From Candidatus Rokuibacteriota bacterium (GTDB lineage: Bacteria; Methylomirabilota; Methylomirabilia; Rokubacteriales; CSP1-6): a DNA stretch of 64,000 nt. Below the pieces are notes generated by a model. The model was not told the origin of the DNA. It saw only the letters and a program-made list of their open reading frames with translations, and searched no databases. The position numbers and the translations under genes are program-made. Positions 40,041-53,025 of this stretch are shown one piece after another. Position 1 is the stretch's first letter. Every line of letters begins with the position of its first letter. The DNA lies in the NCBI GenBank assembly GCA_003220475.1, contig QHSO01000031.1:509-64508 (forward strand). Reading direction: 5' to 3'.

Positions 40041-40139
40041 CCCGGTTCGGCCGGCAATGCTACATCTGACTTCGACCCCTTTCGCCGCGTGGCTCCCACG
40101 CGCTGCGTGTCCCTGACAGGCACTTCGAAAAGGAGGCGC

Positions 40140-40556
40140 ATGTTCGGTAAGAAGAACGGCAAGACGGCGAGCTCCCGCGGCGGCGACCTCACCGCGTTCA
40201 TCGACGAGGCCTCCGAGATCGAGGGCAAGTACACGTTCAGCGGCACGGTGATGCTGAACGGCAAGTTCAAGGGCGAGATCATCTCCACCGATACGCTGAT
40301 CATCGGCGAGAAGGCGGTCGTCAACGCGTCGATCCGCGCGGGCATCGTGCTCATCAGCGGCGAGGTCGTCGGCAACGTGCTGGCCGGCGAGCGCGTGGAG
40401 CTGCGCGGAACGGCGCGGGTGTTCGGCGACGTAGAGGCGCCCGTGGTCGTTGTCGAGGAGGGCGTGACCTTCGAGGGCAAGTGCCGCATGACCCGCGAGA
40501 CCGACGGCGCCGCCGCTGCCGTCTCCCCCGACTCGCCCGTCCGTTCGAAGCGCTGA
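40140..40556 (+). CDS. bactofilin (polymer-forming cytoskeletal protein)
   Basis: AAAGGAGG Shine-Dalgarno. IEGKYTFSGTVMLNGKFKGEIISTDTLIIGEKAVVNASIRAGIVLISGEVVGNV...VELRGTARVFGDVEAP is a typical DUF583 beta-helix repeat. Confidence 0.88.
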   Translation: MFGKKNGKTASSRGGDLTAFIDEASEIEGKYTFSGTVMLNGKFKGEIISTDTLIIGEKAVVNASIRAGIVLISGEVVGNVLAGERVELRGTARVFGDVEAPVVVVEEGVTFEGKCRMTRETDGAAAAVSPDSPVRSKR

Positions 40557-40562
40557 GCGCGC

Positions 40563-40871
40563 TCAGGCCGCGCGTCGTGGCAGCTCGGCCAGCGGGCGCG
40601 TCAGCCGCGGGCGCTCGGTGTCGCTGAGGTCGAGCGCGTCCCACGGCACGATGTGACGCTGCGGCTCGGGCGCGAAGCCTCCGAGCAGGCTCACCACGAG
40701 GTCTCCCGCGGCCAGCCGCTCGACGAGTCCGCCGACACCCAGCACGTATTCGCGCACGATCCACTCACCGTCCTCACGCTCGGCGTGCACCTCTTCGATC
40801 CGCCCGACCACGCGGCCACGGCGATCGATCACGCGCCGCCCGAGGAGATGCTCGAGCCGGATTTCCGCCAT
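40563..40871 (-). CDS. PRC-barrel domain protein
   Basis: MAEIRLEHLLGRRVIDRRGRVVGRIEEVHAEREDGEWIVREYVLG. The ATG shares one base with the upstream TGA (TGATG). The rest of the 630-aa track ORF is spurious. Confidence 0.7.
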   Translation of the reverse strand: MAEIRLEHLLGRRVIDRRGRVVGRIEEVHAEREDGEWIVREYVLGVGGLVERLAAGDLVVSLLGGFAPEPQRHIVPWDALDLSDTERPRLTRPLAELPRRAA

Positions 40872-41215
40872 CACCGGCCTCCGGGGATGCGCGCGATCAG
40901 ACGCGCGAGCCATTTCTCGACGCGCCACGCCGGCGTCTCGGTCGCGTCGATGCCGACGCGGATCTCTCGCGCGACGCTCAACACCGCCGAGCGCGGGATG
41001 CGCGTCGCGGTCGCACGCGTCGCCAGGCGGCCGAGCGGTCGCGTCATCCAGCGGGGCAGCCGCGCCAGGCGCGTCGCCGCGCCCACTTCGAGCGCGACCA
41101 CCCGCGGCGGCGCATCCGGGCGGAGCTCGAGCACCACGCCGTCGACCTTGCCGAACGGTCGCCCTTCGGCGTCGAGCAGCTGCTTGTCGAGCACGTCGCG
41201 CCCGAGAGAGAGCAC
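40871..41215 (-). CDS. PRC-barrel-like domain protein
   Basis: (M)LSLGRDVLDKQLLDAEGRPFGKVDGVVLELRPDAPPRVVALEVG. GTG at 41215 lies 3 nt after the transporter stop. Confidence 0.6.
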   Translation of the reverse strand: MLSLGRDVLDKQLLDAEGRPFGKVDGVVLELRPDAPPRVVALEVGAATRLARLPRWMTRPLGRLATRATATRIPRSAVLSVAREIRVGIDATETPAWRVEKWLARLIARIPGGR

Positions 41216-41218
41216 GGC

Positions 41219-42430
41219 TCAGCCTCCCAGCAGATCGAGTGGCACGGACACGATCGCGAGCACACACGCGAGCACGACCACGCCCAGCACGAACGCGTTG
41301 CCGAGACGGCTGTTGCTCCGGTCGCCGACGTACTCGCGATCGTTCATGAGCACGAGAAAGGGCACGACCGCGAGTGGCAGGCAGGCGGCGTTGAGCGCCA
41401 TCGCCACGTTGGTCAGCCGCAGGGGATCGAGGCCGATCGCCGCCGGCGCCGCGGCCAGGACGAGCGCCACCGTGTAGGAGACGCTGAAGCGTGCGGCCTC
41501 GCGCGGCCGTACGTTCTCGCCCCAGTTCCACCCGAAGCCCTGCGCGATCATGTAGGCGAGCGCCAGGGCCACCTCGAGCGCGGCGCCGAAGCACGCGATG
41601 CCCAGCGCCGCCACGAACAGCGGAAATCCCCACGGTCCGAGCGCGTCGGTGAGCATCGGCGCCATCTGGTCGAACGACTCGAGCCGGGCGCCGCGCATGA
41701 ACACGAGCGCGGCCACGACCAGCACGGCCGCCGCCAACGTCGCGCCGAATCCCATGCCGAACGTCGACACGAAGCGGTTGGCCGGCACGTCGTCCGGCTC
41801 CCAGCCGTCCTCCACCGCCCCCGATGAGTAGAAGTAGAAGAGATATGGCGTCAGCGTCGCGCCGAGGATGCTCACGGCCAGGAACCAGTAGCGACTCGCG
41901 TCGTAGGGAGCGCCCGACGGAACGAAGCCGGCGGCCATCTCGCGCACCGTCGGATGTAGCCGAGCCGCCGCCACCAGGAACACCACGGTCACCAGGCCGA
42001 GCAGCGACACGCCGTTTTCGACGACGCCGAAGTTCCCGCGCCAGAGCAGGAGCCAGAGCGCCACCATGACCGGCACCGCCCACCATTGAAAGCTGACCCC
42101 CGTCGCGAGTTGCAGCGCTATGCACACCGCGCCGAGCTCGGCGGCGAGGGTCAGGACACTGACAGCGACGACGCCGACGAGCGGCAACACGAAGAAGCGC
42201 AGTCCGAAGCGCTCGCGCATCGCGCCGGCGATCGTGTGATGGCTCATCGCCGCCAGCCGGCCGGACATCTCGATCAGCGCGACCAGGCAGATCGTTCCGA
42301 CGAGCAGCACCCACAGCAGCGAATAGCCGTACTCGGCGCCGGCCTGGATCGAGGTGGTGATGGAACCGGCTTCGAGGAAACCGCCGAAGCTCGTGACGAT
42401 GCCGAGGGCGACGTGCAGGAGCTTCTTCAC
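41219..42430 (-). CDS. NRAMP-related transporter with non-canonical metal-site residues
   Basis: IQAGAEYGYSLLWVLL and ILGATLTPYLFYFYSS align to MntH TM1/TM6. DPGN is replaced by EAGS (42373..42362) and MPH by TPY (41851..41843). GTG start at 42430. Confidence 0.8.
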   Translation of the reverse strand: MKKLLHVALGIVTSFGGFLEAGSITTSIQAGAEYGYSLLWVLLVGTICLVALIEMSGRLAAMSHHTIAGAMRERFGLRFFVLPLVGVVAVSVLTLAAELGAVCIALQLATGVSFQWWAVPVMVALWLLLWRGNFGVVENGVSLLGLVTVVFLVAAARLHPTVREMAAGFVPSGAPYDASRYWFLAVSILGATLTPYLFYFYSSGAVEDGWEPDDVPANRFVSTFGMGFGATLAAAVLVVAALVFMRGARLESFDQMAPMLTDALGPWGFPLFVAALGIACFGAALEVALALAYMIAQGFGWNWGENVRPREAARFSVSYTVALVLAAAPAAIGLDPLRLTNVAMALNAACLPLAVVPFLVLMNDREYVGDRSNSRLGNAFVLGVVVLACVLAIVSVPLDLLGG

Positions 42431-42485
42431 GCCCCTTCGACGCTGCAACCGACATGCCTCAGGGGCGCGTGAATTGCAGATCAGC

Positions 42486-44327
42486 GTGCCGGGAGCGCAG
42501 GAGATCGTGGACTGGTGGAATGCGGGACGTCGTAGACACCGCCGGCGCGTCGCCGCCCTCGGGGTGGCATTGCTGGTCGCGCTTCTCACAATCATCGTCG
42601 CCGTCCACTCCGACCATCACGCGCTGGCTGCCGTGGGCGAGGACGGTCAATGGCTGCGCGCCGCCGGCGACTACGCGAGCACGCGCTACAGTCCGCTGGC
42701 GCAGATTACTGCAGCGAACGTCAGGCAGCTCCGTCCGGCCTGGTCGTTTTCCACCGGCGGCGCGCGCGGTCACGAGGCCGCGCCGCTCGTGGTGGGCGAC
42801 ACGATGTACGTCGTGACGCCCTATCCGAACGTCGTCTATGCGCTCGACCTGCGCGCCGGCGGCGGCACCGTGCGGTGGAAGTACGAGCCGAAGCCCGCCG
42901 CGGCGGCGCAGGGCGTGGCGTGCTGCGACGTCGTCAATCGCGGCGCCGCCTATGCCGACGGCCGGGTCGTCTTCAACACGCTCGACGCGCACACGATCGC
43001 GGTGGACGCGCGCACCGGCCGCGAGCTGTGGAACACGAAGCTCGGCGAGATCAACCGCGGCGAGACGATGACGATGGCGCCGCTGATCGTGCGCGATCGC
43101 GTCCTGGTCGGCAACAGCGGCGGCGAGCTCGGCGTGCGCGGCTGGCTGGCCGGGCTCGACCTGGCCACCGGCGCCGTCGCGTGGCGGGCGTACAGCACGG
43201 GTCCGGACCGCGACGTGCTGATCGGTCGCGCGTTCCGTCCGTTTTACGCGGCCGATCGCGTCCCGAATCTCGGCGTCACGACGTGGCCCGCCGAGGCGTG
43301 GCGCATCGGCGGCGGCACCATGTGGGGCTGGATCTCGTACGATCCCGAGCTCGATCTCGTCTATCACGGCACGGGTAACCCCGGTCCGTGGAATCCCGAC
43401 CAGCGGCCGGGCGACAACAAGTGGACGTCGGCGATCTTCGCGCGCCGCCCGGCGACCGGTGAAGCGGTGTGGGCGTATCAGCTCTCGCCGCACGATCTGC
43501 ACGACTACGACGGCATCAACGAGCAGATTCTGCTCGACCTCGACATCAAGGGCCGTCGCCGCAAGGTCCTCGTGCGCCCGGATCGCAACGGCTACGTCTA
43601 CGTGATGGACCGGGCGACGGGCGAGGTCCTGTCCGCGACGCCATTTGCGCACGTCAACACCAGCAAGGGCGTCGACCTCGCCACGGGCCAGCTGAGCTTG
43701 AACGACGAAAAAACGCCGGTGCTCGGCAAGGTCGTGCGCGACATCTGCCCGGCGGCGCCGGGCGCCAAGGACTGGCAGCCGTCGGCGTGGTCGCCGCGGA
43801 CCGGCCTGCTCTACGTGCCGCACCAGAACCTCTGCATGGACGTCGAATCGGTCGAGACCGGCTACATCGCCGGCACGCCGTTCGTCGGCATGAACGTGCG
43901 CATGTACAGTGGCCCCGGCGGGCACCGCGGCGAGGTCACGGCGTGGGATCCCGTCAACGCGCGCGCGGCGTGGAAGCTGAAGGAGCCCTTTCCCGTGTGG
44001 AGCGGCGCGCTCGCGACGGCGGGCGACGTCGTCTTCTACGGCACGATGGACCGCTGGTTCAAGGCGGTGGACGCGAAGACCGGGGAGCTGCTCTGGCGCT
44101 TCCAGACGGCCTCGGGAATCATCGGCCAGCCGATCACCTATCGCGGTCCCGACGGCAAGCAGTACGTCGCGGTCCTGGACGGCGTCGGCGGCTGGGCCGG
44201 CGCGATCGTGTCCGCCGACCTCGATCCGCGGGACACCGGCGCCGCGCTCGGCTTCGTGAACGCGATGCGGGATCTGCCCGCGCACACGGCCAAGGGCGGC
44301 ACGCTGTGGGTCTTCGCGCTGCCATGA
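42486..44327 (+). CDS. xoxF: PQQ-dependent methanol/ethanol-family dehydrogenase, XoxF-like (lanthanide signature)
   Basis: YSPLAQITAANVRQLRPAWSFSTG, GHEAAPLVVGDTMYVVTPYPN, the vicinal disulfide ACCD, GDNKWTSAIFARR and HDLHDYDG (the DYD motif). Start is uncertain (GTG 42486 or 42507). Confidence 0.88.
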   Translation: MPGAQEIVDWWNAGRRRHRRRVAALGVALLVALLTIIVAVHSDHHALAAVGEDGQWLRAAGDYASTRYSPLAQITAANVRQLRPAWSFSTGGARGHEAAPLVVGDTMYVVTPYPNVVYALDLRAGGGTVRWKYEPKPAAAAQGVACCDVVNRGAAYADGRVVFNTLDAHTIAVDARTGRELWNTKLGEINRGETMTMAPLIVRDRVLVGNSGGELGVRGWLAGLDLATGAVAWRAYSTGPDRDVLIGRAFRPFYAADRVPNLGVTTWPAEAWRIGGGTMWGWISYDPELDLVYHGTGNPGPWNPDQRPGDNKWTSAIFARRPATGEAVWAYQLSPHDLHDYDGINEQILLDLDIKGRRRKVLVRPDRNGYVYVMDRATGEVLSATPFAHVNTSKGVDLATGQLSLNDEKTPVLGKVVRDICPAAPGAKDWQPSAWSPRTGLLYVPHQNLCMDVESVETGYIAGTPFVGMNVRMYSGPGGHRGEVTAWDPVNARAAWKLKEPFPVWSGALATAGDVVFYGTMDRWFKAVDAKTGELLWRFQTASGIIGQPITYRGPDGKQYVAVLDGVGGWAGAIVSADLDPRDTGAALGFVNAMRDLPAHTAKGGTLWVFALP

Positions 44328-45118
44328 GGGCGACGGCAGGCGCGCTGCTCGCGCTGCTGCTGCTCGGCGCGGCGCCGGCGCCGGCGCCGCTGCGCGTCTG
44401 CGCCGATCCCAACAACCTGCCGTTTTCGAACGCGCGTGGCGAGGGGTTCGAGAACCGCATCGCCGAGCTGCTCGCGCGCGAGCTCGGCACGCGCGTGGAA
44501 TACACGTGGTGGGCGCAGCGGCGCGGGCTCGTGCGCCACACGCTGGCGGCCGGCGCGTGCGACCTGCTGGTGGGCGTGCCGGCGGGGTGGGACCCCGTGC
44601 TCGCGACGCGTCCGTACTATCGCTCGACGTACGTCTTCGCCTGGCGACGAGACCGCGCGCTCGACGTGCGCAGCCTCGACGATCCGCGGCTGCGGACACT
44701 CAGGCTCGGCGTGCAGCTCATCGGCGACAACGGTGTGAACACGCCGCCGGCGCACGCGCTGGCGCGCCGCGGAATCGTGCAGAACGTCCGCGGCTATCCC
44801 ATCTACGGTGACTACGCGCGGCCGAGTCCGGCGGCACAGATCCTCCACGCGGTGGCCGACGACGAGATCGACGTCGCGGTCGTCTGGGGGCCGCTGGCCG
44901 GCTACTTCGCCGACCGCCTCACGACGCCGCTCGCATTCGCCCCCGTCACGCCGGCGATCGACCCACCGGGATTGCGCTTCACGTTCGCGATGGCGGCGGG
45001 CGTGCGCAAGGGCGACACGCCGCTGCGCGATCGGCTGCAGGCCGCGCTCGACCGTCGCGCCGACGATGTGCGCGCGATCCTGGATGCCTACGCGGTCCCG
45101 CGTGTGGAGCAGCCGTGA
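44324..45118 (+). CDS. xoxJ: MxaJ/XoxJ-like periplasmic binding protein associated with quinoprotein dehydrogenases
   Basis: ATGA overlap with xoxF. Signal peptide, then LRVCADPNNLPFSN...RPYYRSTYVF...DVAVVWGPLAGYF. Confidence 0.8.
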   Translation: MRATAGALLALLLLGAAPAPAPLRVCADPNNLPFSNARGEGFENRIAELLARELGTRVEYTWWAQRRGLVRHTLAAGACDLLVGVPAGWDPVLATRPYYRSTYVFAWRRDRALDVRSLDDPRLRTLRLGVQLIGDNGVNTPPAHALARRGIVQNVRGYPIYGDYARPSPAAQILHAVADDEIDVAVVWGPLAGYFADRLTTPLAFAPVTPAIDPPGLRFTFAMAAGVRKGDTPLRDRLQAALDRRADDVRAILDAYAVPRVEQP

Positions 45119-45618
45119 GCCGGGTGGCCGCGCTGGCGTGCGTGATGCTCGCGCTCGTCGCGTGCGAGCGAGAGCACCGCCGCTTCAGCGAGGTCGCGCC
45201 GGCGTCGGGCCGGCCGACGCACGTCACGCCGCAGCCATCGCGCAACCCGGCGGAGGGTAACGCCTGGGCCATCGCGCAGGGCAAGCAGCTCTACGAGGCA
45301 TACAACTGCAACGGCTGTCACGCCAACGGCGGGGGCGGCATGGGGCCCGCGCTGATGGACGCCACGTGGCTCTATGGCAGTGAGCCGCAGGACGTCTACA
45401 CGAGCATCGTCGAGGGGCGCCCCAACGGCATGCCGGCGTTCGGCGGACGGATTCCCGACGTGCAGGTCTGGCAGCTCGTCGCGTACGTGCGCTCGATGAG
45501 CGGCCAGACGCGCTTCGACGTGCGGCCGGCGCGCAGCGATCACATGCGCGTGAAGGAATCCGAGCAGGCGCGTCGCCCGGAGCGGCCGGTCACCGCCGCG
45601 CCGTCGGGTCGGCCATGA
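45115..45618 (+). CDS. c-type cytochrome (mono-haem, lipoprotein-like signal)
   Basis: GTGA overlap. LALVAC, then the CNGCH haem site and the GMPAF Met-ligand region. Confidence 0.8.
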   Translation: MSRVAALACVMLALVACEREHRRFSEVAPASGRPTHVTPQPSRNPAEGNAWAIAQGKQLYEAYNCNGCHANGGGGMGPALMDATWLYGSEPQDVYTSIVEGRPNGMPAFGGRIPDVQVWQLVAYVRSMSGQTRFDVRPARSDHMRVKESEQARRPERPVTAAPSGRP

Positions 45619-46619
45619 GCCGCGCGGCCATCGTCGTCGCCGCCGTCGCGTGCGCGGCGTGCAGCGGACGCATGCCCGTGCTCGATCCCGGCGGGCCACA
45701 GGCCGCGCGCATCGCCACGTACTGGTGGATCGTGTTCTGGCTGTCGGCGCTCATCCTCGCCGCCGTGGTCGCGTTCCTGCTCCACACGCTCGCGCATCGG
45801 CGCGTGGCCGCGGCGCCGGCGAGCCTCGTCGAGGACACGCGCGTTGAGCGTCGGCTCGCGCTCGGCGTGGCCGCGGCGGTGGGGCTCACGGCGCTCACGC
45901 TGGTGGTCTTGCTCGTCACGAGCGTTGCCACCGGTCGCGCGCTGCGCAGCTTCGGCGGCACCGATCCGCTCACGCTCGAGGTGACGGGATATCAGTGGTG
46001 GTGGGACGTCGAGTACTGGGATCCCGTGCCGTCGCAGCGCGTGCGCACGGCCAACGAGATCCACATTCCGGTCGGCCGGCCGGTCCTCGTCAAGACGCGC
46101 TCGCTCGACGTCATCCACAGCTTCTGGGTGCCCGGCCTGCATGGCAAGAAGGACAACATCCCGGGCCACGGCTCGTCCCTCGTGCTGCAGGCCGACCGTG
46201 CGGGTACCTTCATCGGTCGCTGCGCGGAGTTCTGCGGCGTCCAGCACGCGCACATGCAGCTGCTGGTCATTGCCGACCAGCCGGAGGTCTTCGACGCATG
46301 GCTGCAGGCGCAGCGGCGATCGGCGGTCGTGCCGACGGACGCGTTCGCGCGACACGGCTTCGACCTGTTCATGACGGGCCCGTGCGCGCTCTGCCACACG
46401 GTACTCGGCACGCCGGCGGGCGGCCGGCGCGGTCCCGATCTGACGCACCTGGCGTCGCGCCGGACGCTCGCCGCCGGCACGCTACCAAACACCGTGGGCC
46501 ATCTCGCCGGGTGGATCATCGATCCGCAGGCTCAGAAGCCCGGCGCGCAGATGCCTGGCAATGCCTTCGGCGCCGACGATCTGAGCGCGCTGCTCGCGTT
46601 CCTCGGAGGGCTCTCGTGA
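45615..46619 (+). CDS. coxB: cytochrome c oxidase subunit II with C-terminal cytochrome c domain
   Basis: ATGA overlap. CuA motif CAEFCGVQHAHM, SLDVIHSFWVPGLHGKKD, and a C-terminal CALCH haem site. Confidence 0.9.
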   Translation: MSRAAIVVAAVACAACSGRMPVLDPGGPQAARIATYWWIVFWLSALILAAVVAFLLHTLAHRRVAAAPASLVEDTRVERRLALGVAAAVGLTALTLVVLLVTSVATGRALRSFGGTDPLTLEVTGYQWWWDVEYWDPVPSQRVRTANEIHIPVGRPVLVKTRSLDVIHSFWVPGLHGKKDNIPGHGSSLVLQADRAGTFIGRCAEFCGVQHAHMQLLVIADQPEVFDAWLQAQRRSAVVPTDAFARHGFDLFMTGPCALCHTVLGTPAGGRRGPDLTHLASRRTLAAGTLPNTVGHLAGWIIDPQAQKPGAQMPGNAFGADDLSALLAFLGGLS

Positions 46620-48547
46620 GCTCGACCGTCGGCCCGACGAGCACGCTCGCACCCGGCGAGGCCGCGCGCGAGACGCTGGACCGCGCCGCGCTCGAGCGCG
46701 TCTGGTCGACGCCGCCGGGCTTCCTGGGATGGCTGACGAGCGCGAGCCACAAGTCCGTGGCCCTGCGCTACATCGTGACGGCATTCGGCTTCTTCGCGCT
46801 CGGCGGCGTGCTCGCCGCGCTCATGCGACTGCAGCTCACGCGCCCGGAGAGCCGCCTCATCGGCCCCGACCTCTACAACCAGATCTTCACGATGCACGGC
46901 AGCACGATGATGTTCCTGTTCGCGGTGCCGGTGATGGAGGCGTTCGGCATCTACCTCGTGCCGCTCATGATCGGCACGCGCAACGTCGCCTTTCCGCGCA
47001 TGAACAACTTCGGGTACTGGATCTATCTCTTCGGCGGCCTCATGCTGTGGACGGCGTTCGCGCTCGACATCGGACCGGACACCGGCTGGTTCGCGTACGT
47101 CCCGCTGTCGGGCCCCGCCTACTCGCCGGGCAAGCGCGTCGACATCTGGGCGCAGCTGATCACGTTCACGGAGATCGCCGCGCTCGTGGCCGCCGTCGAG
47201 CTCATCGTCACCACGCTGAAGATGCGCTGTCCGGGCATGTCGCTCAACCGGATGCCGCTGTTCGTGTGGGCGATGCTCGTGACCGCGTTCATGGTCATCT
47301 TCGCCATGCCGGCCATCATGGTGGCCAGCACGATGCTGGCGATGGACCGGCTCGTCGACACGCACTTCTTCAATCCGGCCGAGGGCGGCGACGCGCTGCT
47401 GTGGCAGCACCTGTTCTGGTTCTTCGGCCATCCCGAGGTCTACATCATCTTCATTCCGGCCACGGGCTTCGTGTCCACGATCGTGTCGACCTTCGCGCGC
47501 CGGCGCATCGTCGGCTATCCGGCCATGGTGCTGGCGCTCATCGCGACCGGCTTCCTCGGCTTCAGCCTGTGGGTGCACCACATGTTCGCCGTCGGCCTGC
47601 CGCAGCTCGGCGAGGCGTTTTTCACGGCCGCGAGCATGATGATCGCGATCCCCAGCGGCATCCAGGTCTTCTGCTGGCTCGCCACGCTGCGCGGGGGCCG
47701 CATCGTGATGCGCGCCCCGCTGCTCTGGGCGCTGGGGTTCATCGCGCTCTTCGTGATCGGCGGACTCACCGGCGTCATGACGGCGGCCGTGCCGCTCGAC
47801 CTGCAGCTGCACGACACCTACTTCGTCGTGGCGCACTTCCACTACGTGCTGATCGGCGGCGCGCTGTTCCCGCTCCTCGGCGCCGTCCTGTTCTGGCTGC
47901 CGAAGATGTGCGGGCGGATGCCCGACGAGCGGCTCGGACGAGTGAGCTTCTGGATCACGTTCGTGGGCTTCAACCTCACGTTCTTTCCGATGCACCTGCT
48001 CGGCCTCGGCGGGATGCCGCGGCGGGTCTACACCTACGCGCGCGACGCCGGCCTGACGACGGGCAACGTCGTGGCGAGCGCGGGCGCGGTGGTGCTGACG
48101 GCCGGCATCCTGGTGTTCCTGGCCAATGTCGCGTGGACGTTGCGTCGCGGCGCGCCCGCCGGCGACGATCCCTGGGGCGCGGAGACGCTCGAGTGGGCCA
48201 CCGCCTCGCCGCCGCCGTCGTACAACTTCGCCTACCTGCCAACGGTGGACGGCCAGGCACCGCTCTGGTCGACGCAGGAGCGCCCCGTCGTCACGGGACT
48301 GCGCACCGACGTCCGCGAAGTCCTCATCACCGACGGCGTCGACGCCACGCCCGATCACCGGCATCGGCTCGACGGCGCGAGCGTCTGGCCGTTCCTGACG
48401 GCCGTCGCGGCCACGATCGGCGTGGTCACCGCGCTCTTCACACCCTGGGGCGTGACCATCGGCTCACTGCTCGCGCTGGTGACGCTCACCGGGTGGTTCT
48501 GGCCGCGCGGCGCGCCGGCGCACGAAACGGTGGAGCAACGTCCGTGA
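46616..48547 (+). CDS. coxA: cytochrome c oxidase subunit I
   Basis: GTGA overlap. NQIFTMHGSTMMFLF, WFFGHPEVYIIFIP, WVHHMFAVG, HFHYVLIGG. Confidence 0.93.
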   Translation: MSSTVGPTSTLAPGEAARETLDRAALERVWSTPPGFLGWLTSASHKSVALRYIVTAFGFFALGGVLAALMRLQLTRPESRLIGPDLYNQIFTMHGSTMMFLFAVPVMEAFGIYLVPLMIGTRNVAFPRMNNFGYWIYLFGGLMLWTAFALDIGPDTGWFAYVPLSGPAYSPGKRVDIWAQLITFTEIAALVAAVELIVTTLKMRCPGMSLNRMPLFVWAMLVTAFMVIFAMPAIMVASTMLAMDRLVDTHFFNPAEGGDALLWQHLFWFFGHPEVYIIFIPATGFVSTIVSTFARRRIVGYPAMVLALIATGFLGFSLWVHHMFAVGLPQLGEAFFTAASMMIAIPSGIQVFCWLATLRGGRIVMRAPLLWALGFIALFVIGGLTGVMTAAVPLDLQLHDTYFVVAHFHYVLIGGALFPLLGAVLFWLPKMCGRMPDERLGRVSFWITFVGFNLTFFPMHLLGLGGMPRRVYTYARDAGLTTGNVVASAGAVVLTAGILVFLANVAWTLRRGAPAGDDPWGAETLEWATASPPPSYNFAYLPTVDGQAPLWSTQERPVVTGLRTDVREVLITDGVDATPDHRHRLDGASVWPFLTAVAATIGVVTALFTPWGVTIGSLLALVTLTGWFWPRGAPAHETVEQRP

Positions 48548-49149
48548 GCCAACGCGCGCTCGACGTCTCCGCGCTGCCCACGATCGCTTACGGGCCCCGC
48601 GCGAGCATCTGGTGGGGCGTGCTCGGCCTCGTCGCCATCGAGGGCAGCGCGCTCGCCATCGTCGGCGTCTCGTACCTCTATCTGCGGCAGAATTTCGTCG
48701 CGTGGCCGCCGCCGGGAACGCCCCTGCCCGCGCTCGGAGCGGCCACCGGGGACCTCGTCGTGCTGCTCGCCAGCATCGTGCCCATGGCGATCGTCGATCG
48801 GCTCGCACGCGCCGAGCGGCGCCGTCCGGTGGCGATCGGCCTCGGCGTCATGGTGCTGCTGGGGCTCGCGTCGCTGGCGCTGCGCGCGCTGCAGTTCGCC
48901 GGCGCGCTCGGATGTCGCTGGGACAGCCACGCCTACGGCTCGGTCGTGTGGACGCTGCTCGGCATGCACGCCGCCCACGTGTTGACCTCCACGCTCGAGA
49001 ATGCGCTGCTCATGGCCGTGCTCGTCGTCGGTCCCGTCGAGCGCAAGGACTTCGTCGATGCGCACGTGAACGCGTTCTACTGGTATTTCATCGCCGCGGT
49101 GTGGGTGCCGACGTACGCGCTCGTCTATCTCGCCCCCCGCTTCCTATGA
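48544..49149 (+). CDS. coxC: cytochrome c oxidase subunit III-like
   Basis: GTGA overlap. Five-TM protein with WTLLGMHAAHVLTS and YWYFIAAVWVPTYALVY. Confidence 0.8.
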   Translation: MSQRALDVSALPTIAYGPRASIWWGVLGLVAIEGSALAIVGVSYLYLRQNFVAWPPPGTPLPALGAATGDLVVLLASIVPMAIVDRLARAERRRPVAIGLGVMVLLGLASLALRALQFAGALGCRWDSHAYGSVVWTLLGMHAAHVLTSTLENALLMAVLVVGPVERKDFVDAHVNAFYWYFIAAVWVPTYALVYLAPRFL

Positions 49150-49511
49150 GCCCTCCCTTCGGTAGGACAAGCGTGCGACGACTCTGGCTCGCGATCGCGC
49201 TCGGTCCGCTCGCCTGGCTCACCTACGTCGTGATCGCCTATGCCCTCGTGCCGCTGGCGTGCCGCCACCCGGGCGCGGCCTCGCGCATCGGACTCTATGG
49301 CGTCGGTGCCGCCACGCTCGTGATGGCGCTCGGCGCCGTCGTTCTCGCGTGGCCCGCCTGGCGCACCACCGATCGCGCCACCGCCGACGATGCGCCGCCG
49401 GCGGGGCTGATGCGCTTCATGGCGATGACGGGCCTCGGCTCCGGCGCGCTGTTCGTCGTGGTGGCCATCGCCGGCATCCTGCCGCTCTTCTTGCTGGCGC
49501 CATGCGAGTGA
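49146..49511 (+). CDS. small hypothetical membrane protein in the oxidase operon
   Basis: ATGA overlap. 121 aa with three or four hydrophobic helices. No family recognised. Confidence 0.55.
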   Translation: MSPPFGRTSVRRLWLAIALGPLAWLTYVVIAYALVPLACRHPGAASRIGLYGVGAATLVMALGAVVLAWPAWRTTDRATADDAPPAGLMRFMAMTGLGSGALFVVVAIAGILPLFLLAPCE

Positions 49512-50659
49512 GCACGCTGCGCGCGTGCGCCATCGCCGTCCTCGTCGTTGGCGCGCCCGCGACGGCGGCCGCACACGGTGACGAGGCCAGCGTGGCGTCG
49601 CGCGCGCCGCTCATCGCCCTGCTCGCGCTCGGCGCGTGGCTGTACGCGCGCGGCGTCCGGCGGCTCGGCCCGCGCTGGCCACGCCGTCGGGTCGCGGCCG
49701 CGGCCGCCGGTGCCTGCACCATCGCCGCCGCGCTGCTGTCGCCGCTCGACACGCTGGCGGCCTCCAGCATCACCGCGCACATGGCCCAGCACACGCTGTT
49801 GATCCTGGTCGCCGCGCCGTTGCTCGCGCTCGGCCGCCCCATCGCCGTGATGGCCGCCGCGCTGCCGCGGGCGCCGCGGGCCGGCCGCCTGCTCGCGACG
49901 CCGCGACCGGGTGTGGCGTGCGGCGCGCATGCGGCCGCGCTGTGGCTGTGGCATCTGCCGCCGCTGTACGACATCGCGCTCGCGCGGCCCTGGGTTCACG
50001 CGCTCGCCCACGCCACGCTGCTCGGCACGGCCACGCTTCTCTGGTGGTCGGTCGCGCGCGGCCGTGCGCGCGTCATCGGCGCGCTGTGGCTGTTCATCAC
50101 CGCGTTCCACGCCGGCGGCCTCGGCGCGCTGCTGGCGTTGTCGTCGCGACCGTGGTTTGCCGGCGCGTCGCTCGAAGATCAACAACTCGGTGGACTGCTG
50201 ATGTGGGTGCCGGCGGGCGCGCTGCTGACGGCGATCGCGCTGGCCCTGCTCGCCGGCTGGCTCCGCGCGGGCGCGGCGTCCGTGTCCGCCAGCCGGTTCG
50301 GCGTCGTGATCGTCGCGACACTCGCCGCCGCGGCGCTGAGCGCCTGCGATCAGGCCGGACCCACGGCGACGACGATGGCCGCCGGCGACCCGTCGCGTGG
50401 CCGCGAGGCGCTAAGAACGTACGGCTGCGTGACGTGCCACACGATTCCCGGCGTGCCCAACGCCGCCGGCGCCGTCGGTCCGCCGCTGACGCAGCTGGCG
50501 CGACGCGCGTACATCGCGGGCGCGCCGAACGATCCCGACCACCTGGTGCGCTTCATCGCTCATCCGCGTCAGGAGCGGCCCGGCACGCCGATGCCCGAGC
50601 TCGGCGTGAGCGACCACGACGCGCGCGACATGGCCGCCTACCTCTACACGCTGCGCTGA
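49502..50659 (+). CDS. ctaG: CtaG (caa3-type) oxidase assembly factor fused to a C-terminal cytochrome c domain
   Basis: TAHMAQHTLLILVAAPLL, WLWHLPPLYD and the LMWVPAGALL membrane core. After a lipobox-like LSAC comes a soluble domain with CVTCH and a PGTPMP Met ligand. Confidence 0.75.
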   Translation: MRVSTLRACAIAVLVVGAPATAAAHGDEASVASRAPLIALLALGAWLYARGVRRLGPRWPRRRVAAAAAGACTIAAALLSPLDTLAASSITAHMAQHTLLILVAAPLLALGRPIAVMAAALPRAPRAGRLLATPRPGVACGAHAAALWLWHLPPLYDIALARPWVHALAHATLLGTATLLWWSVARGRARVIGALWLFITAFHAGGLGALLALSSRPWFAGASLEDQQLGGLLMWVPAGALLTAIALALLAGWLRAGAASVSASRFGVVIVATLAAAALSACDQAGPTATTMAAGDPSRGREALRTYGCVTCHTIPGVPNAAGAVGPPLTQLARRAYIAGAPNDPDHLVRFIAHPRQERPGTPMPELGVSDHDARDMAAYLYTLR

Positions 50660-50667
50660 CCGGCCCC

Positions 50668-51963
50668 TCAAAGCCTCCAATCACGCGTGAGCGCGGCGAC
50701 GCGCGCGAGCAGCTCTCCTTCCGACACGCGCGTCAGACGGCCGCTCTCGACAACGCGCTCGCCGTGGACCCAGACGTCGCTCACGGCCTGCGGCGACATC
50801 GCGAACACGACGTTCGCCAGCAGATTCGTCGGCGGGTGCAGCGAGGCGTGGCCGAGGTCCACGGCGACCAGATCGGCGAGGCGACCGGCCTCGATGCGGC
50901 CGGCGTCCAGCTCCAGGATCGCGGCGCCGCCCTCCGTACCGAGCCCGAACACCTCGGTCGCCGGCAGCGCGCCGCCGTCCAGGAGCCGCACGCGCTGCAG
51001 CAGCGACGCCATGCGCATCTCCTCGAAGATCGACAGCCGATTGTTGGTACAGCCGCCGTCGGTGCCGAGCCCGGCGCGCACGCCGGCGCGCCGCAGCTCC
51101 GGCAGGCGCGTCACGCCGTCGCCGAGGAACATGTTGCTCGACGGGCAGTACGCCAGGGCCGCGCCGCGCGCGCCCATGAGCGCGATCTCCTCGTCGTCGA
51201 GCCAGACCGCGTGCACGGCGATCGTGCGCGGGCCGAGCGCGCCCAGACGATCCAGGTAGCGCACAGGAGTCGTACCGTGCTCGCGCCGCGTGCGCTCGCC
51301 CTCGTAGCGCCCCTCCGCCACATGGATGTGCAGCGGCACCCGCTCGGTCTGCGCCACGTCGGCGCCCGCCTGGATCATGGTCGCAGACGCGCCGTGAGGG
51401 CTGTGCGGCGCCGCGTGGATGTCGACCGTCGCGTCGTGACGGTGCGCGGCGATCAGCTCGCGCACGCGGCGCGCGGCGTCGGCCGGGCTCTCCCGATAGC
51501 GCTTGGGCGCGCCCTCCCAGTCGTACATCGTCCGCGCGAGGACCAGGCGGATCCCGACGGCGCGCGCCGCGGCGATGACCGCCTCCGCGTTGTCGTTGCT
51601 CGCGTCGTTGAGATAGAAGAAGTCCACGCACGTCGTCACGCCGTGGCGGAGCATCTCGGCGAACGCGAAGGCGGCGCCCAGCGCGATGCCGTCGCGATCG
51701 AGGCGTTCGGAGAAGGGATACAGCACGCGATCGCGCCAGCCGGCGAAGTCGAGATCGTCGCCGAGGCCGCGCAGCAGCGACTGGAACGTGTGGCAGTGCG
51801 CGTTGACCGTGCCCGGCAGCAGCGCGCGCCCCGGCAGCATGACGTCGCCGGGCTGCCGCGGCTGCGCCACGCCGACGTGCGCGATGCGGCCGTCGGTGAC
51901 GGCGATGGCGACGTCGCGCCGCCAGCCCTCGGGCGTCAGCGCGCGCTCGGGCACGAGTCTCAT
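50668..51963 (-). CDS. amidohydrolase family protein (chlorohydrolase/aminohydrolase type)
   Basis: MRLVPERAL...LLPGTVNAHCHTFQS...HIHVAEG...AVHAVWLDDEE...GTDGG. ATG is at 51963; the upstream part of the track ORF is spurious. Confidence 0.85.
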   Translation of the reverse strand: MRLVPERALTPEGWRRDVAIAVTDGRIAHVGVAQPRQPGDVMLPGRALLPGTVNAHCHTFQSLLRGLGDDLDFAGWRDRVLYPFSERLDRDGIALGAAFAFAEMLRHGVTTCVDFFYLNDASNDNAEAVIAAARAVGIRLVLARTMYDWEGAPKRYRESPADAARRVRELIAAHRHDATVDIHAAPHSPHGASATMIQAGADVAQTERVPLHIHVAEGRYEGERTRREHGTTPVRYLDRLGALGPRTIAVHAVWLDDEEIALMGARGAALAYCPSSNMFLGDGVTRLPELRRAGVRAGLGTDGGCTNNRLSIFEEMRMASLLQRVRLLDGGALPATEVFGLGTEGGAAILELDAGRIEAGRLADLVAVDLGHASLHPPTNLLANVVFAMSPQAVSDVWVHGERVVESGRLTRVSEGELLARVAALTRDWRL

Positions 51964-52032
51964 CGGCGGCCGTCGAGTATACTGCCGACCCGTGATGCGC
52001 ATCTCCGCGCTCGTTGGCGTCGTCGCGCGCTG

Positions 52033-53025
52033 ATGCGGCTGGGCTTCGTGCTCGCCGGTGCGGCCGCCCTGCCCGCCGCCGAGTTCGCCGACATCGTGCG
52101 CGAGACCGAGGCCCGCGGCTATCACACGGCGTGGACGGGCGAGACCGGCGGCTACGACGCCATCGCCGTCATGGCGACGATTCTCGCCCGGAGCACGCGG
52201 CTGAACGTCGGCTCCGCGGTCGTGCCGGTGCAGACGCGCACGCCGACGCTGCTCGGCATGAGCGCCGCGACGCTCGGCCATCTGGCGCCGGGCCGCGTGG
52301 CGCTCGGCATCGGGCTGTCGAGCCGGATCATCGTCGAGCAGTGGCACGGCCTGAAATATTCCGCCGCGCTGGCGCAGATCCGCGAGGCGGTCCAGATCAT
52401 CCGGCTGGTGACGGCCGGCGAGCGCGTGAACTTCGAGGGCGAGTTCTATCGCGTGAAGAACTTTCGGCTCAGTGCGCCGGCGGCGCCGGTGCGCGTCGTG
52501 CTGGCGGCGCTGGGCCCGGAGATGCTCGAGCTGGCCGGCGAGATCGCCGACGGCGTCGTGCTCAACTGGATCCCGCCCGAGGCGGTGCCGGCCTCCATCG
52601 CGCATCTCGAGGCGGGCGCGCGGCGGGCCGGCCGCCCGCTCGAGGGCTTCGAGATCGCCTGCTTCATTCGCACGTGCGTCACCGACGACGTCGAGTCGGC
52701 ACGCGCGGCGCTCGCGCGCGACATCACCGCCTACGCGATCGTCGACGTGTACGCCTCGTTCTTCCGCACCGCGGGGTTCGGCGCCGAGGTCGACGCCGTC
52801 AATCGGCGCTGGCAGGCCGGCGATCGCGCCGGCGCCGTCGGAGAGATCTCGCCGCGCGTGCTCGACGGCCTTGGCGTCGTCGGCGACGCCGCCGTCTGCC
52901 GGGCACGCCTCGACGCCTTCGCGCGCGCCGGGCTCACGATGCCGGTGGTGCTGCCGTTCAATCCTGCCGCCGGGGGCGATCCGCGGCCGGCGCTGCTGCG
53001 CACGCTGCGCGCGTTCGGCGCATGA
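52033..53025 (+). CDS. luciferase-like monooxygenase (LLM) class flavin/F420-dependent oxidoreductase
   Basis: MRLGFVLAG...YHTAWTGETGGYDAIAVMA...GRVALGIGLSS.... This is only the last 330 codons of the 1129-aa track ORF. Confidence 0.8.
   Translation: MRLGFVLAGAAALPAAEFADIVRETEARGYHTAWTGETGGYDAIAVMATILARSTRLNVGSAVVPVQTRTPTLLGMSAATLGHLAPGRVALGIGLSSRIIVEQWHGLKYSAALAQIREAVQIIRLVTAGERVNFEGEFYRVKNFRLSAPAAPVRVVLAALGPEMLELAGEIADGVVLNWIPPEAVPASIAHLEAGARRAGRPLEGFEIACFIRTCVTDDVESARAALARDITAYAIVDVYASFFRTAGFGAEVDAVNRRWQAGDRAGAVGEISPRVLDGLGVVGDAAVCRARLDAFARAGLTMPVVLPFNPAAGGDPRPALLRTLRAFGA

Follow-up and report, generated by a model that had tools for sequence, protein, structure and literature searches.

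A Rokubacteria operon that probably encodes a XoxF3 system, with a linked haem-copper oxidase altered at its proton-channel residues

Does an operon that encodes a periplasmic alcohol dehydrogenase also encode the oxidase for its electrons, and, if it does, how unusual is this arrangement and what kind of oxidase is linked to it? The question is raised by a stretch of 64,000 nucleotides (the window, by which we mean the whole of the DNA analysed) from Candidatus Rokuibacteriota bacterium (GenBank assembly GCA_003220475.1, contig QHSO01000031.1, positions 509 to 64,508 of the forward strand), in which eight consecutive genes run from the dehydrogenase gene xoxF through the oxidase genes coxB, coxA and coxC to ctaG. 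The source is a soil Rokubacteria metagenome-assembled genome (MAG) of 4.8 Mb in 329 contigs, which is 92% complete. Judging from gene content, motifs and synteny, the operon is very probably the Rokubacteria copy of the XoxF3 system, consisting of the dehydrogenase, XoxJ, a membrane-tethered cytochrome c, a complete caa3-like oxidase and a CtaG copper-insertion factor. The arrangement is already known, being ordinary for this XoxF clade and published.

All eight reading frames are translated without a stop codon between positions 42486 and 50659, each in the frame given by its coordinates, and the genes are as follows.

42486..44327, plus strand: xoxF, predicted XoxF3-type, pyrroloquinoline quinone (PQQ)-dependent, lanthanide-type methanol/alcohol dehydrogenase with an N-terminal export signal (TIGR03075, DYD motif)
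44324..45118, plus strand: xoxJ, XoxJ-like periplasmic binding protein (TIGR03871)
45115..45618, plus strand: cytochrome c, mono-haem class I (PF13442, PF00034)
45615..46619, plus strand: coxB, caa3-type subunit II that has a CuA site and ends in a fused cytochrome c domain (TIGR02866, PF00034)
46616..48547, plus strand: coxA, subunit I of an A-family haem-copper oxidase, extended by two helices at its C-terminus (TIGR02891)
48544..49149, plus strand: coxC, short subunit III of 201 residues (PF00510)
49146..49511, plus strand: small three-helix membrane protein of 121 residues (no family)
49502..50659, plus strand: ctaG, Caa3-type CtaG assembly factor with a C-terminal cytochrome c domain (PF09678, PF00034)

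An initial annotation of this DNA had listed eight plus-strand genes joined by overlapping stop and start codons. All of these open reading frames (ORFs) were found in frame, seven with a family assignment and the 121-residue protein without one, and the overlap positions were confirmed in the sequence. Six junctions are 4-nucleotide overlaps that can be read directly (ATGA at 44324, GTGA at 45115, ATGA at 45615, GTGA at 46616, GTGA at 48544 and ATGA at 49146), and the small gene overlaps ctaG by 10 nucleotides if the latter starts at ATG 49502. An alternative in-frame start of ctaG, GTG 49508, gives a 4-nucleotide GTGA overlap at this last junction as well. Overlap is thus present at 7 of 7 junctions, and the eight-gene string has zero intergenic space. 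The start of xoxF is ambiguous by 12 nucleotides (GTG 42486 or TTG 42474); the database copy of XoxF is 617 residues long.

The product of xoxF matches TIGR03075, the family of PQQ-dependent methanol/ethanol dehydrogenases, over its full length (640.7 bits, cut-off 480.05). Its best solved relative is XoxF from Methylacidiphilum fumariolicum SolV (4MAE, 655.7 bits), followed by other XoxF and MxaF structures at 490-585 bits, while the PedH/ExaA ethanol dehydrogenases reach only about 317-338 bits. In the alignment to SolV XoxF the lanthanide DYD motif is kept (HDYDG in the window, WDYDG in SolV XoxF), and so is the vicinal Cys pair (ACCDVVNRG). By the DYD and CC criteria, the protein is predicted to be a lanthanide-type methanol/alcohol dehydrogenase. 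Its closest genomic relatives are encoded in Methylomirabilota/Rokuibacteriota MAGs, at 84-86% identity. Proteins from Acidobacteriota, Gemmatimonadota and Rokubacteria (66-86% identity) are nearer to it than the solved XoxF1, XoxF2, XoxF5 and MxaF (520-656 bits), which fits the taxon range reported for XoxF3. The xoxJ product matches TIGR03871 (MoxJ_2, 'quinoprotein dehydrogenase-associated SBP') with 301.5 bits against a cut-off of 212, and in the majority of the 80 related loci described below, xoxJ likewise follows xoxF. The cytochrome c occupies the XoxG position in the operon, matches PF13442 (1.2e-15) and PF00034, and has the haem motif CNGCH; it is probably a lipoprotein, lipid-anchored via its LVAC lipobox. 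Other parts of the MAG contain pqqC and pqqE, and PQQ can therefore be made by the host.

CoxB scores 151.8 bits against TIGR02866 (cut-off 147.7), its residues 247-333 match PF00034, and its translation contains a CuA motif, H...CAEFCGVQHAHM, as well as CALCH, a haem motif. Among solved structures, CoxB is best matched along its entire length by subunit II of the Thermus caa3 oxidase (2YEV_B, 1.1e-48), and we assign the oxidase to the caa3 type because of this full-length alignment. CoxA matches TIGR02891 with 727.6 bits (cut-off 670.75). The match of CoxC to PF00510 (8.6e-07) covers profile positions 112-255 only, and coxC is colinear in the related loci. Six His residues, the cross-link motif, the CuA site and the cytochrome c domain of CoxB are all present, and by these ligands the predicted enzyme is an A-family oxidase of the caa3 type. 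In CtaG, residues 46-255 match PF09678 (1.6e-42) and residues 299-384 match PF00034, with the haem motif CVTCH. The MAG encodes three A-family subunit I genes; since the two besides the operon CoxA are canonical, the operon oxidase is an extra one and not the housekeeping oxidase.

These family matches, motifs and overlaps fit the gene identities and the operon-like coupling of the initial annotation, as well as the electron path and assembly factor that it proposed. This path is the most likely function of the operon. In it, the alcohol would be oxidised in the periplasm at PQQ/Ln3+, and electrons would pass from the dehydrogenase to the free cytochrome c, then to the cytochrome c domain of CoxB, to CuA and to haem a, finally reaching haem a3-CuB, where O2 would be reduced. 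The path would bypass the quinone pool and complex III, and CtaG would serve copper insertion. The sequence shows the identities of the genes, the cofactor motifs, the tight coupling and the synteny; from these we infer the substrate, the donor-acceptor pairing with its partner specificity, the single transcript and the conservation of energy.

How widespread is the arrangement? One genome per GTDB species was scanned with the dehydrogenase, which returned at least 585 relatives, and the best 80 loci were kept. Synteny was assessed by tblastn of all eight proteins against these 80 loci, and loci with at least 6.5 kilobases (kb) downstream of xoxF were considered informative (n = 55). In 51 of the 55 informative loci, coxB and then coxA are encoded on the strand of xoxF and no more than 8 kb from it, and the order xoxF-xoxJ-cytochrome c-coxB-coxA-coxC is nearly universal among the loci compared. 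One of the four exceptions is Methylocaldum, where the cox genes lie just upstream of xoxF. The hosts belong to Methylomirabilota, Binatia, Acidobacteriota (Pyrinomonadaceae, Blastocatellia and Thermoanaerobaculia), Gemmatimonadota, Burkholderiales, Rhizobiales (Mesorhizobium, Chelativorans and Pseudaminobacter) and Methylococcaceae, and the cultured carriers among the relatives include Mesorhizobium sp. B2-1-3A and LNHC252B00, Chelativorans sp. J32, Pseudaminobacter soli HC19, Noviherbaspirillum pedocola DKR-6 and Methylocaldum sp. GT1BB. Chance adjacency of a housekeeping oxidase is ruled out by the gene order shared across phyla and by the two other canonical oxidases of the MAG.

The same genes, down to the small protein encoded between CoxIII and CtaG, have been described as "XoxF3 systems" (Voutsinos et al. 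2024, BMC Biol, PMC10875860; preprint 10.1101/2022.03.08.483559). According to that paper, the mini-review of Keltjens et al. 2014 was the first to note that a few xoxF3 operons contain cox and ctaG, and XoxF3 is known in Rokubacteria from earlier metagenomic studies. Every element of the window cluster fits the description given there, and this holds for the small protein and for the NRAMP gene next to the operon too. The published clusters differ in their hosts, which in the passages on gene clusters are Acidobacteria, Gemmatimonadetes and Verrucomicrobia, whereas the window comes from a Rokubacteria/Methylomirabilota MAG; in the window operon, moreover, there is an overlap at every junction. 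The initial annotation had considered a dehydrogenase-oxidase module of this kind to be unusual. That view has to be given up, because the arrangement is common, spanning at least 7 lineages, and already described, which is the outcome that the annotation had itself named beforehand as refuting it.

The tight coupling is shared by the relatives to varying degrees. An in-frame 4-nucleotide overlap is possible at coxA-coxC in 47 of 54 loci, at cytochrome c-coxB in 42 of 61, at xoxJ-cytochrome c in 36 of 68 and at coxB-coxA in 34 of 57. With the chance of such an overlap roughly estimated at about 0.2 per junction, the overlaps possible in these sequences exceed chance expectation. Pairwise distances among the XoxF proteins are correlated with those among the linked CoxA (Mantel r = 0.77, a value reached in 0 of 2000 permutations), which is consistent with inheritance or transfer of the genes as one unit, although the shared species phylogeny also contributes to this correlation.

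Tandem duplicated xoxF genes upstream of xoxJ and the cox genes were observed in Longimicrobium/Longimicrobiaceae loci and in one locus whose label says no more than Gemmatimonadota (L011, L014, L018, L026, L034, L039, L048, L068 and L069).

What kind of oxidase, then, is linked to the dehydrogenase? We aligned 62 xoxF-linked CoxA sequences with M. smegmatis CtaD and the two other CoxA of the same MAG, using R. sphaeroides numbering. All of the xoxF-linked CoxA have the six His ligands, the Arg pair and, within GHPEVY, the Glu and the cross-link Tyr. In the window CoxA, K362 is replaced by Gln, N121 by Ile, D132 by Asn and N207 by Glu, so that the protein lacks the canonical combination of K-channel Lys and D-channel entrance Asp/Asn residues. 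These changes are not confined to the window: the position of K362 is Gln in 61 of the 62 linked CoxA and Thr in the other one, none of them has Asn at position 121, position 132 has Asp in only 12 but Asn or Ser in 46, and position 207 is mostly Glu, Val or Ala, with Asn in only 4. Both other CoxA genes of the MAG encode the canonical Lys, Asn, Asp and Asn at K362, N121, D132 and N207. The subunit II Glu at the entrance of the K-channel has no Glu aligned to it in the window CoxB, in a part of the alignment that is of low confidence.

The module is patchily distributed in the phylum, CoxA of the Gln type being present in only 8 of the 121 sampled genomes. Within the genus of the window it was found in 3 of 6 sampled genomes (present in G000, G061 and G110; not found in G031, G084 and G093). 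This suggests that the genus has the module as an accessory one, but several of these MAGs are not complete. A strict tie between the Gln-type oxidase and xoxF is ruled out by three Methylomirabilota genomes in which the gene for such a CoxA is at least 7 kb away from any PQQ dehydrogenase gene, and the Gln-type lineage is accordingly wider than the XoxF3 system.

The CoxA of these three genomes (L112 G106:C209, L113 G019:C95 and L115 G064:C92) are 49-62% identical to the window CoxA, and their genes have solute-binding proteins, hydantoinases, a short-chain dehydrogenase and a luciferase-like monooxygenase as neighbours. In a further observation, one of the loci with tandem xoxF genes, L048, has another cox cluster of the Gln type some 4 kb upstream.

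Several points weigh against reading the operon as a XoxF3 system that works along the path outlined above. The placement in XoxF3 is a probable one, made by synteny, taxon range and the exclusion of clades with solved structures. The cytochrome c scores 32.5 bits against the MoxG model TIGR03872 (cytochrome cL/XoxG), below the cut-off of 147.8, and by these profile scores it is a generic class I cytochrome and not a cytochrome cL/XoxG equivalog. Candidate substrates are methanol, other alcohols and aldehydes, and XoxF3 systems, including the enzyme and the linked oxidase, are described as lacking experimental characterisation in PMC10875860. We consider it unlikely that the dehydrogenase oxidises another alcohol, an aldehyde or formaldehyde in vivo and that the module serves alcohol scavenging or detoxification in a non-methylotroph, though such a role would agree with the uncharacterised state of the XoxF3 enzymes, and the patchy presence of the module in the genus suits an accessory function. 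In the MAG, moreover, six genes for PQQ alcohol dehydrogenases score above the family cut-off, the five others at 35-41% identity. What speaks for a methanol dehydrogenase instead is that the window XoxF is far closer by score to the XoxF/MxaF methanol dehydrogenase structures (520-656 bits) than to PedH/ExaA. Transcript data bear on the operon itself. When four soil metatranscriptome runs were compared to it, contigs with 0-2 mismatches were found on the 5' end of xoxF (42468-42658) and on coxA (e.g. 46967-47129), which suggests that the genes are expressed in situ, with DNA carry-over as a possible source; the read depth on coxA comes mostly from other organisms, at 90-95% likeness. No RNA spanning a junction was found among the short contigs of these four runs. 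This negative result, together with the short gap that often separates xoxF from xoxJ in the relatives (a 4-nucleotide overlap being possible in only 12 of 69 loci), would suit two neighbouring operons with internal promoters, one of xoxF, xoxJ and cytochrome c and the other of the cox genes. We regard such a division as very unlikely, since the cytochrome c-coxB junction is a 4-nucleotide overlap in the window, as it can be in most relatives, and there is no intergenic space. A consensus scan of the operon found no sigma-70-like promoter, and a scan for terminators found none between genes, only five weak terminator-like hairpins with stems of 5-6 bp, all of them intragenic.

The last point against the XoxF3 reading concerns the oxidase. 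Being without the K-channel Lys and several D-channel residues, CoxA may not act as a normal proton-pumping aa3/caa3 oxidase. It is possible, though short of an even chance, that the linked oxidase is no ordinary proton pump and instead has a lower H+/e- ratio, uses another proton route or acts as a fast electron sink for the dehydrogenase. The near-universal K362 replacement and the altered N121, D132 and N207 positions, set beside the two canonical CoxA of the same MAG, point in this direction, as does the lack of an aligned Glu in CoxB. A literature search combining these topics found no paper on a xoxF-linked oxidase with such K- and D-channel alterations. The argument is one from sequence, however, and the residues that are retained count on the other side: the GHPEVY Glu at the top of the D-channel, the cross-link Tyr, the His ligands and the Arg pair are invariant, and the chemistry of O2 reduction is therefore expected to be normal. 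Furthermore, loss of the K-channel Lys need not abolish proton uptake, because B-family oxidases function without it, and the Gln feature is not specific to methanol oxidation, since the Gln-type lineage occurs in the three Methylomirabilota genomes without an adjacent xoxF. Tentatively, and as a doubtful proposal, the xoxF3-linked oxidase might represent a distinct, uncharacterised A-family lineage that has lost the canonical K-channel Lys (now Gln) and the D-channel entrance residues while its O2-reducing centre is complete. Such an oxidase may use another proton route or another energy coupling, suited to a donor that releases protons in the periplasm, and the three-helix protein encoded beside it may be a subunit specific to this lineage or a copper-handling factor.

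The 121-residue protein has no Pfam or NCBIfam match at E values up to 0.01, and a homologue is encoded directly 3' of coxC in 42 other loci. P21 is invariant among its residues, and Y32, C39 and C120 are conserved at 90% or more. The AlphaFold2 model (confidence score, pLDDT, 88.3) consists of three long helices, and by the positive-inside rule C39 and C120 are predicted to face the periplasm. A Foldseek search of this model against the PDB retrieved generic helical bundles only, at E values above 0.28, and nothing below 0.1. The absence of a family match and of a significant PDB fold speaks against subunit IV or another known fold for this protein. It corresponds to the hypothetical protein of ~110-130 residues between CoxIII and CtaG that is mentioned in PMC10875860, where similarity to a 'vesicle-transport protein' is suggested. 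That similarity is probably the same generic three-helix resemblance as seen with our model, for which a syntaxin chain appears only at Foldseek rank 49. The protein may be an extra oxidase subunit, or a copper-handling or thiol factor.

In comparison with known systems, the window XoxF shares the DYD motif, the vicinal Cys pair and the eight-bladed propeller family with SolV XoxF, a lanthanide methanol dehydrogenase (PDB 4MAE/6FKW), which scores well below the relatives that share the synteny (830-1039 bits, tblastn). SolV XoxF is placed in another XoxF clade, and its gene is not known to adjoin an oxidase gene. The caa3 oxidase of Thermus thermophilus (PDB 2YEV) likewise has a subunit II with a fused C-terminal cytochrome c domain and an A-family subunit I. 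The window oxidase differs from that enzyme in its CoxA, where Gln takes the place of the K-channel Lys and the residues at the D-channel entrance are altered, and in that its subunits I and III are encoded by separate genes. In the mxaFJGI and xoxFGJ clusters of proteobacterial methylotrophs and in the exa/ped clusters of Pseudomonas, a dehydrogenase is combined with a J-type binding protein and a dedicated c-type cytochrome, as in the window; the window cytochrome c differs in not being an equivalog of cytochrome cL or of c550 PedF. We know of no terminal oxidase genes in the classical mxa, xox and exa/ped clusters. The rus operon of Acidithiobacillus ferrooxidans (cyc2-cyc1-coxBACD-rus) does combine a donor chain with a dedicated aa3-type oxidase. 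Its donor is Fe(II), via Cyc2, rusticyanin and Cyc1, and it has no PQQ dehydrogenase. By gene content alone, the rus operon and the window operon follow the same logic, in that a periplasmic or outer donor chain is encoded with an oxidase of its own.

Where a dehydrogenase and an oxidase of its own are encoded together, a short branch of respiration is implied that leads from methanol or other volatile alcohols to O2. The soil phyla concerned are common and mostly uncultured, and such a branch bears on methanol turnover in soil. In metagenomes from soil and weathered rock, XoxF3 genes rank with the most abundant genes for lanthanide enzymes (10.64898/2026.07.10.737718). The window operon itself adds only another host phylum to the published pattern. 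The remaining interest lies in the non-canonical proton-channel residues of the oxidase and in a XoxF3 system that, according to PMC10875860, is without bench study.

The genes on either side of the operon are the following.

41219..42430, minus strand: NRAMP-family transporter, not in the operon (PF01566, 4.9e-61)
50668-52605, minus strand: amidohydrolase gene, convergent

Because the eight genes are flanked by the divergent NRAMP gene and the convergent amidohydrolase gene, they form a discrete unit. Searches of the window for regulatory RNA gave no Rfam match, and a repeat search of the window returned high-GC noise only. The G+C content of the window is 63-74%, and as a consequence it contains many long spurious ORFs. 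The start codons of the NRAMP gene and xoxF are separated by only about 45-55 nucleotides, and an ORF of 114 residues (40871-41215, minus strand) lies with the NRAMP gene, divergent from xoxF. NRAMP genes together with small proteins are reported in XoxF3 regions in PMC10875860. Just past the NRAMP neighbourhood, a bactofilin-domain protein is encoded on the plus strand (40089-40556; PF04519, 1.1e-25).

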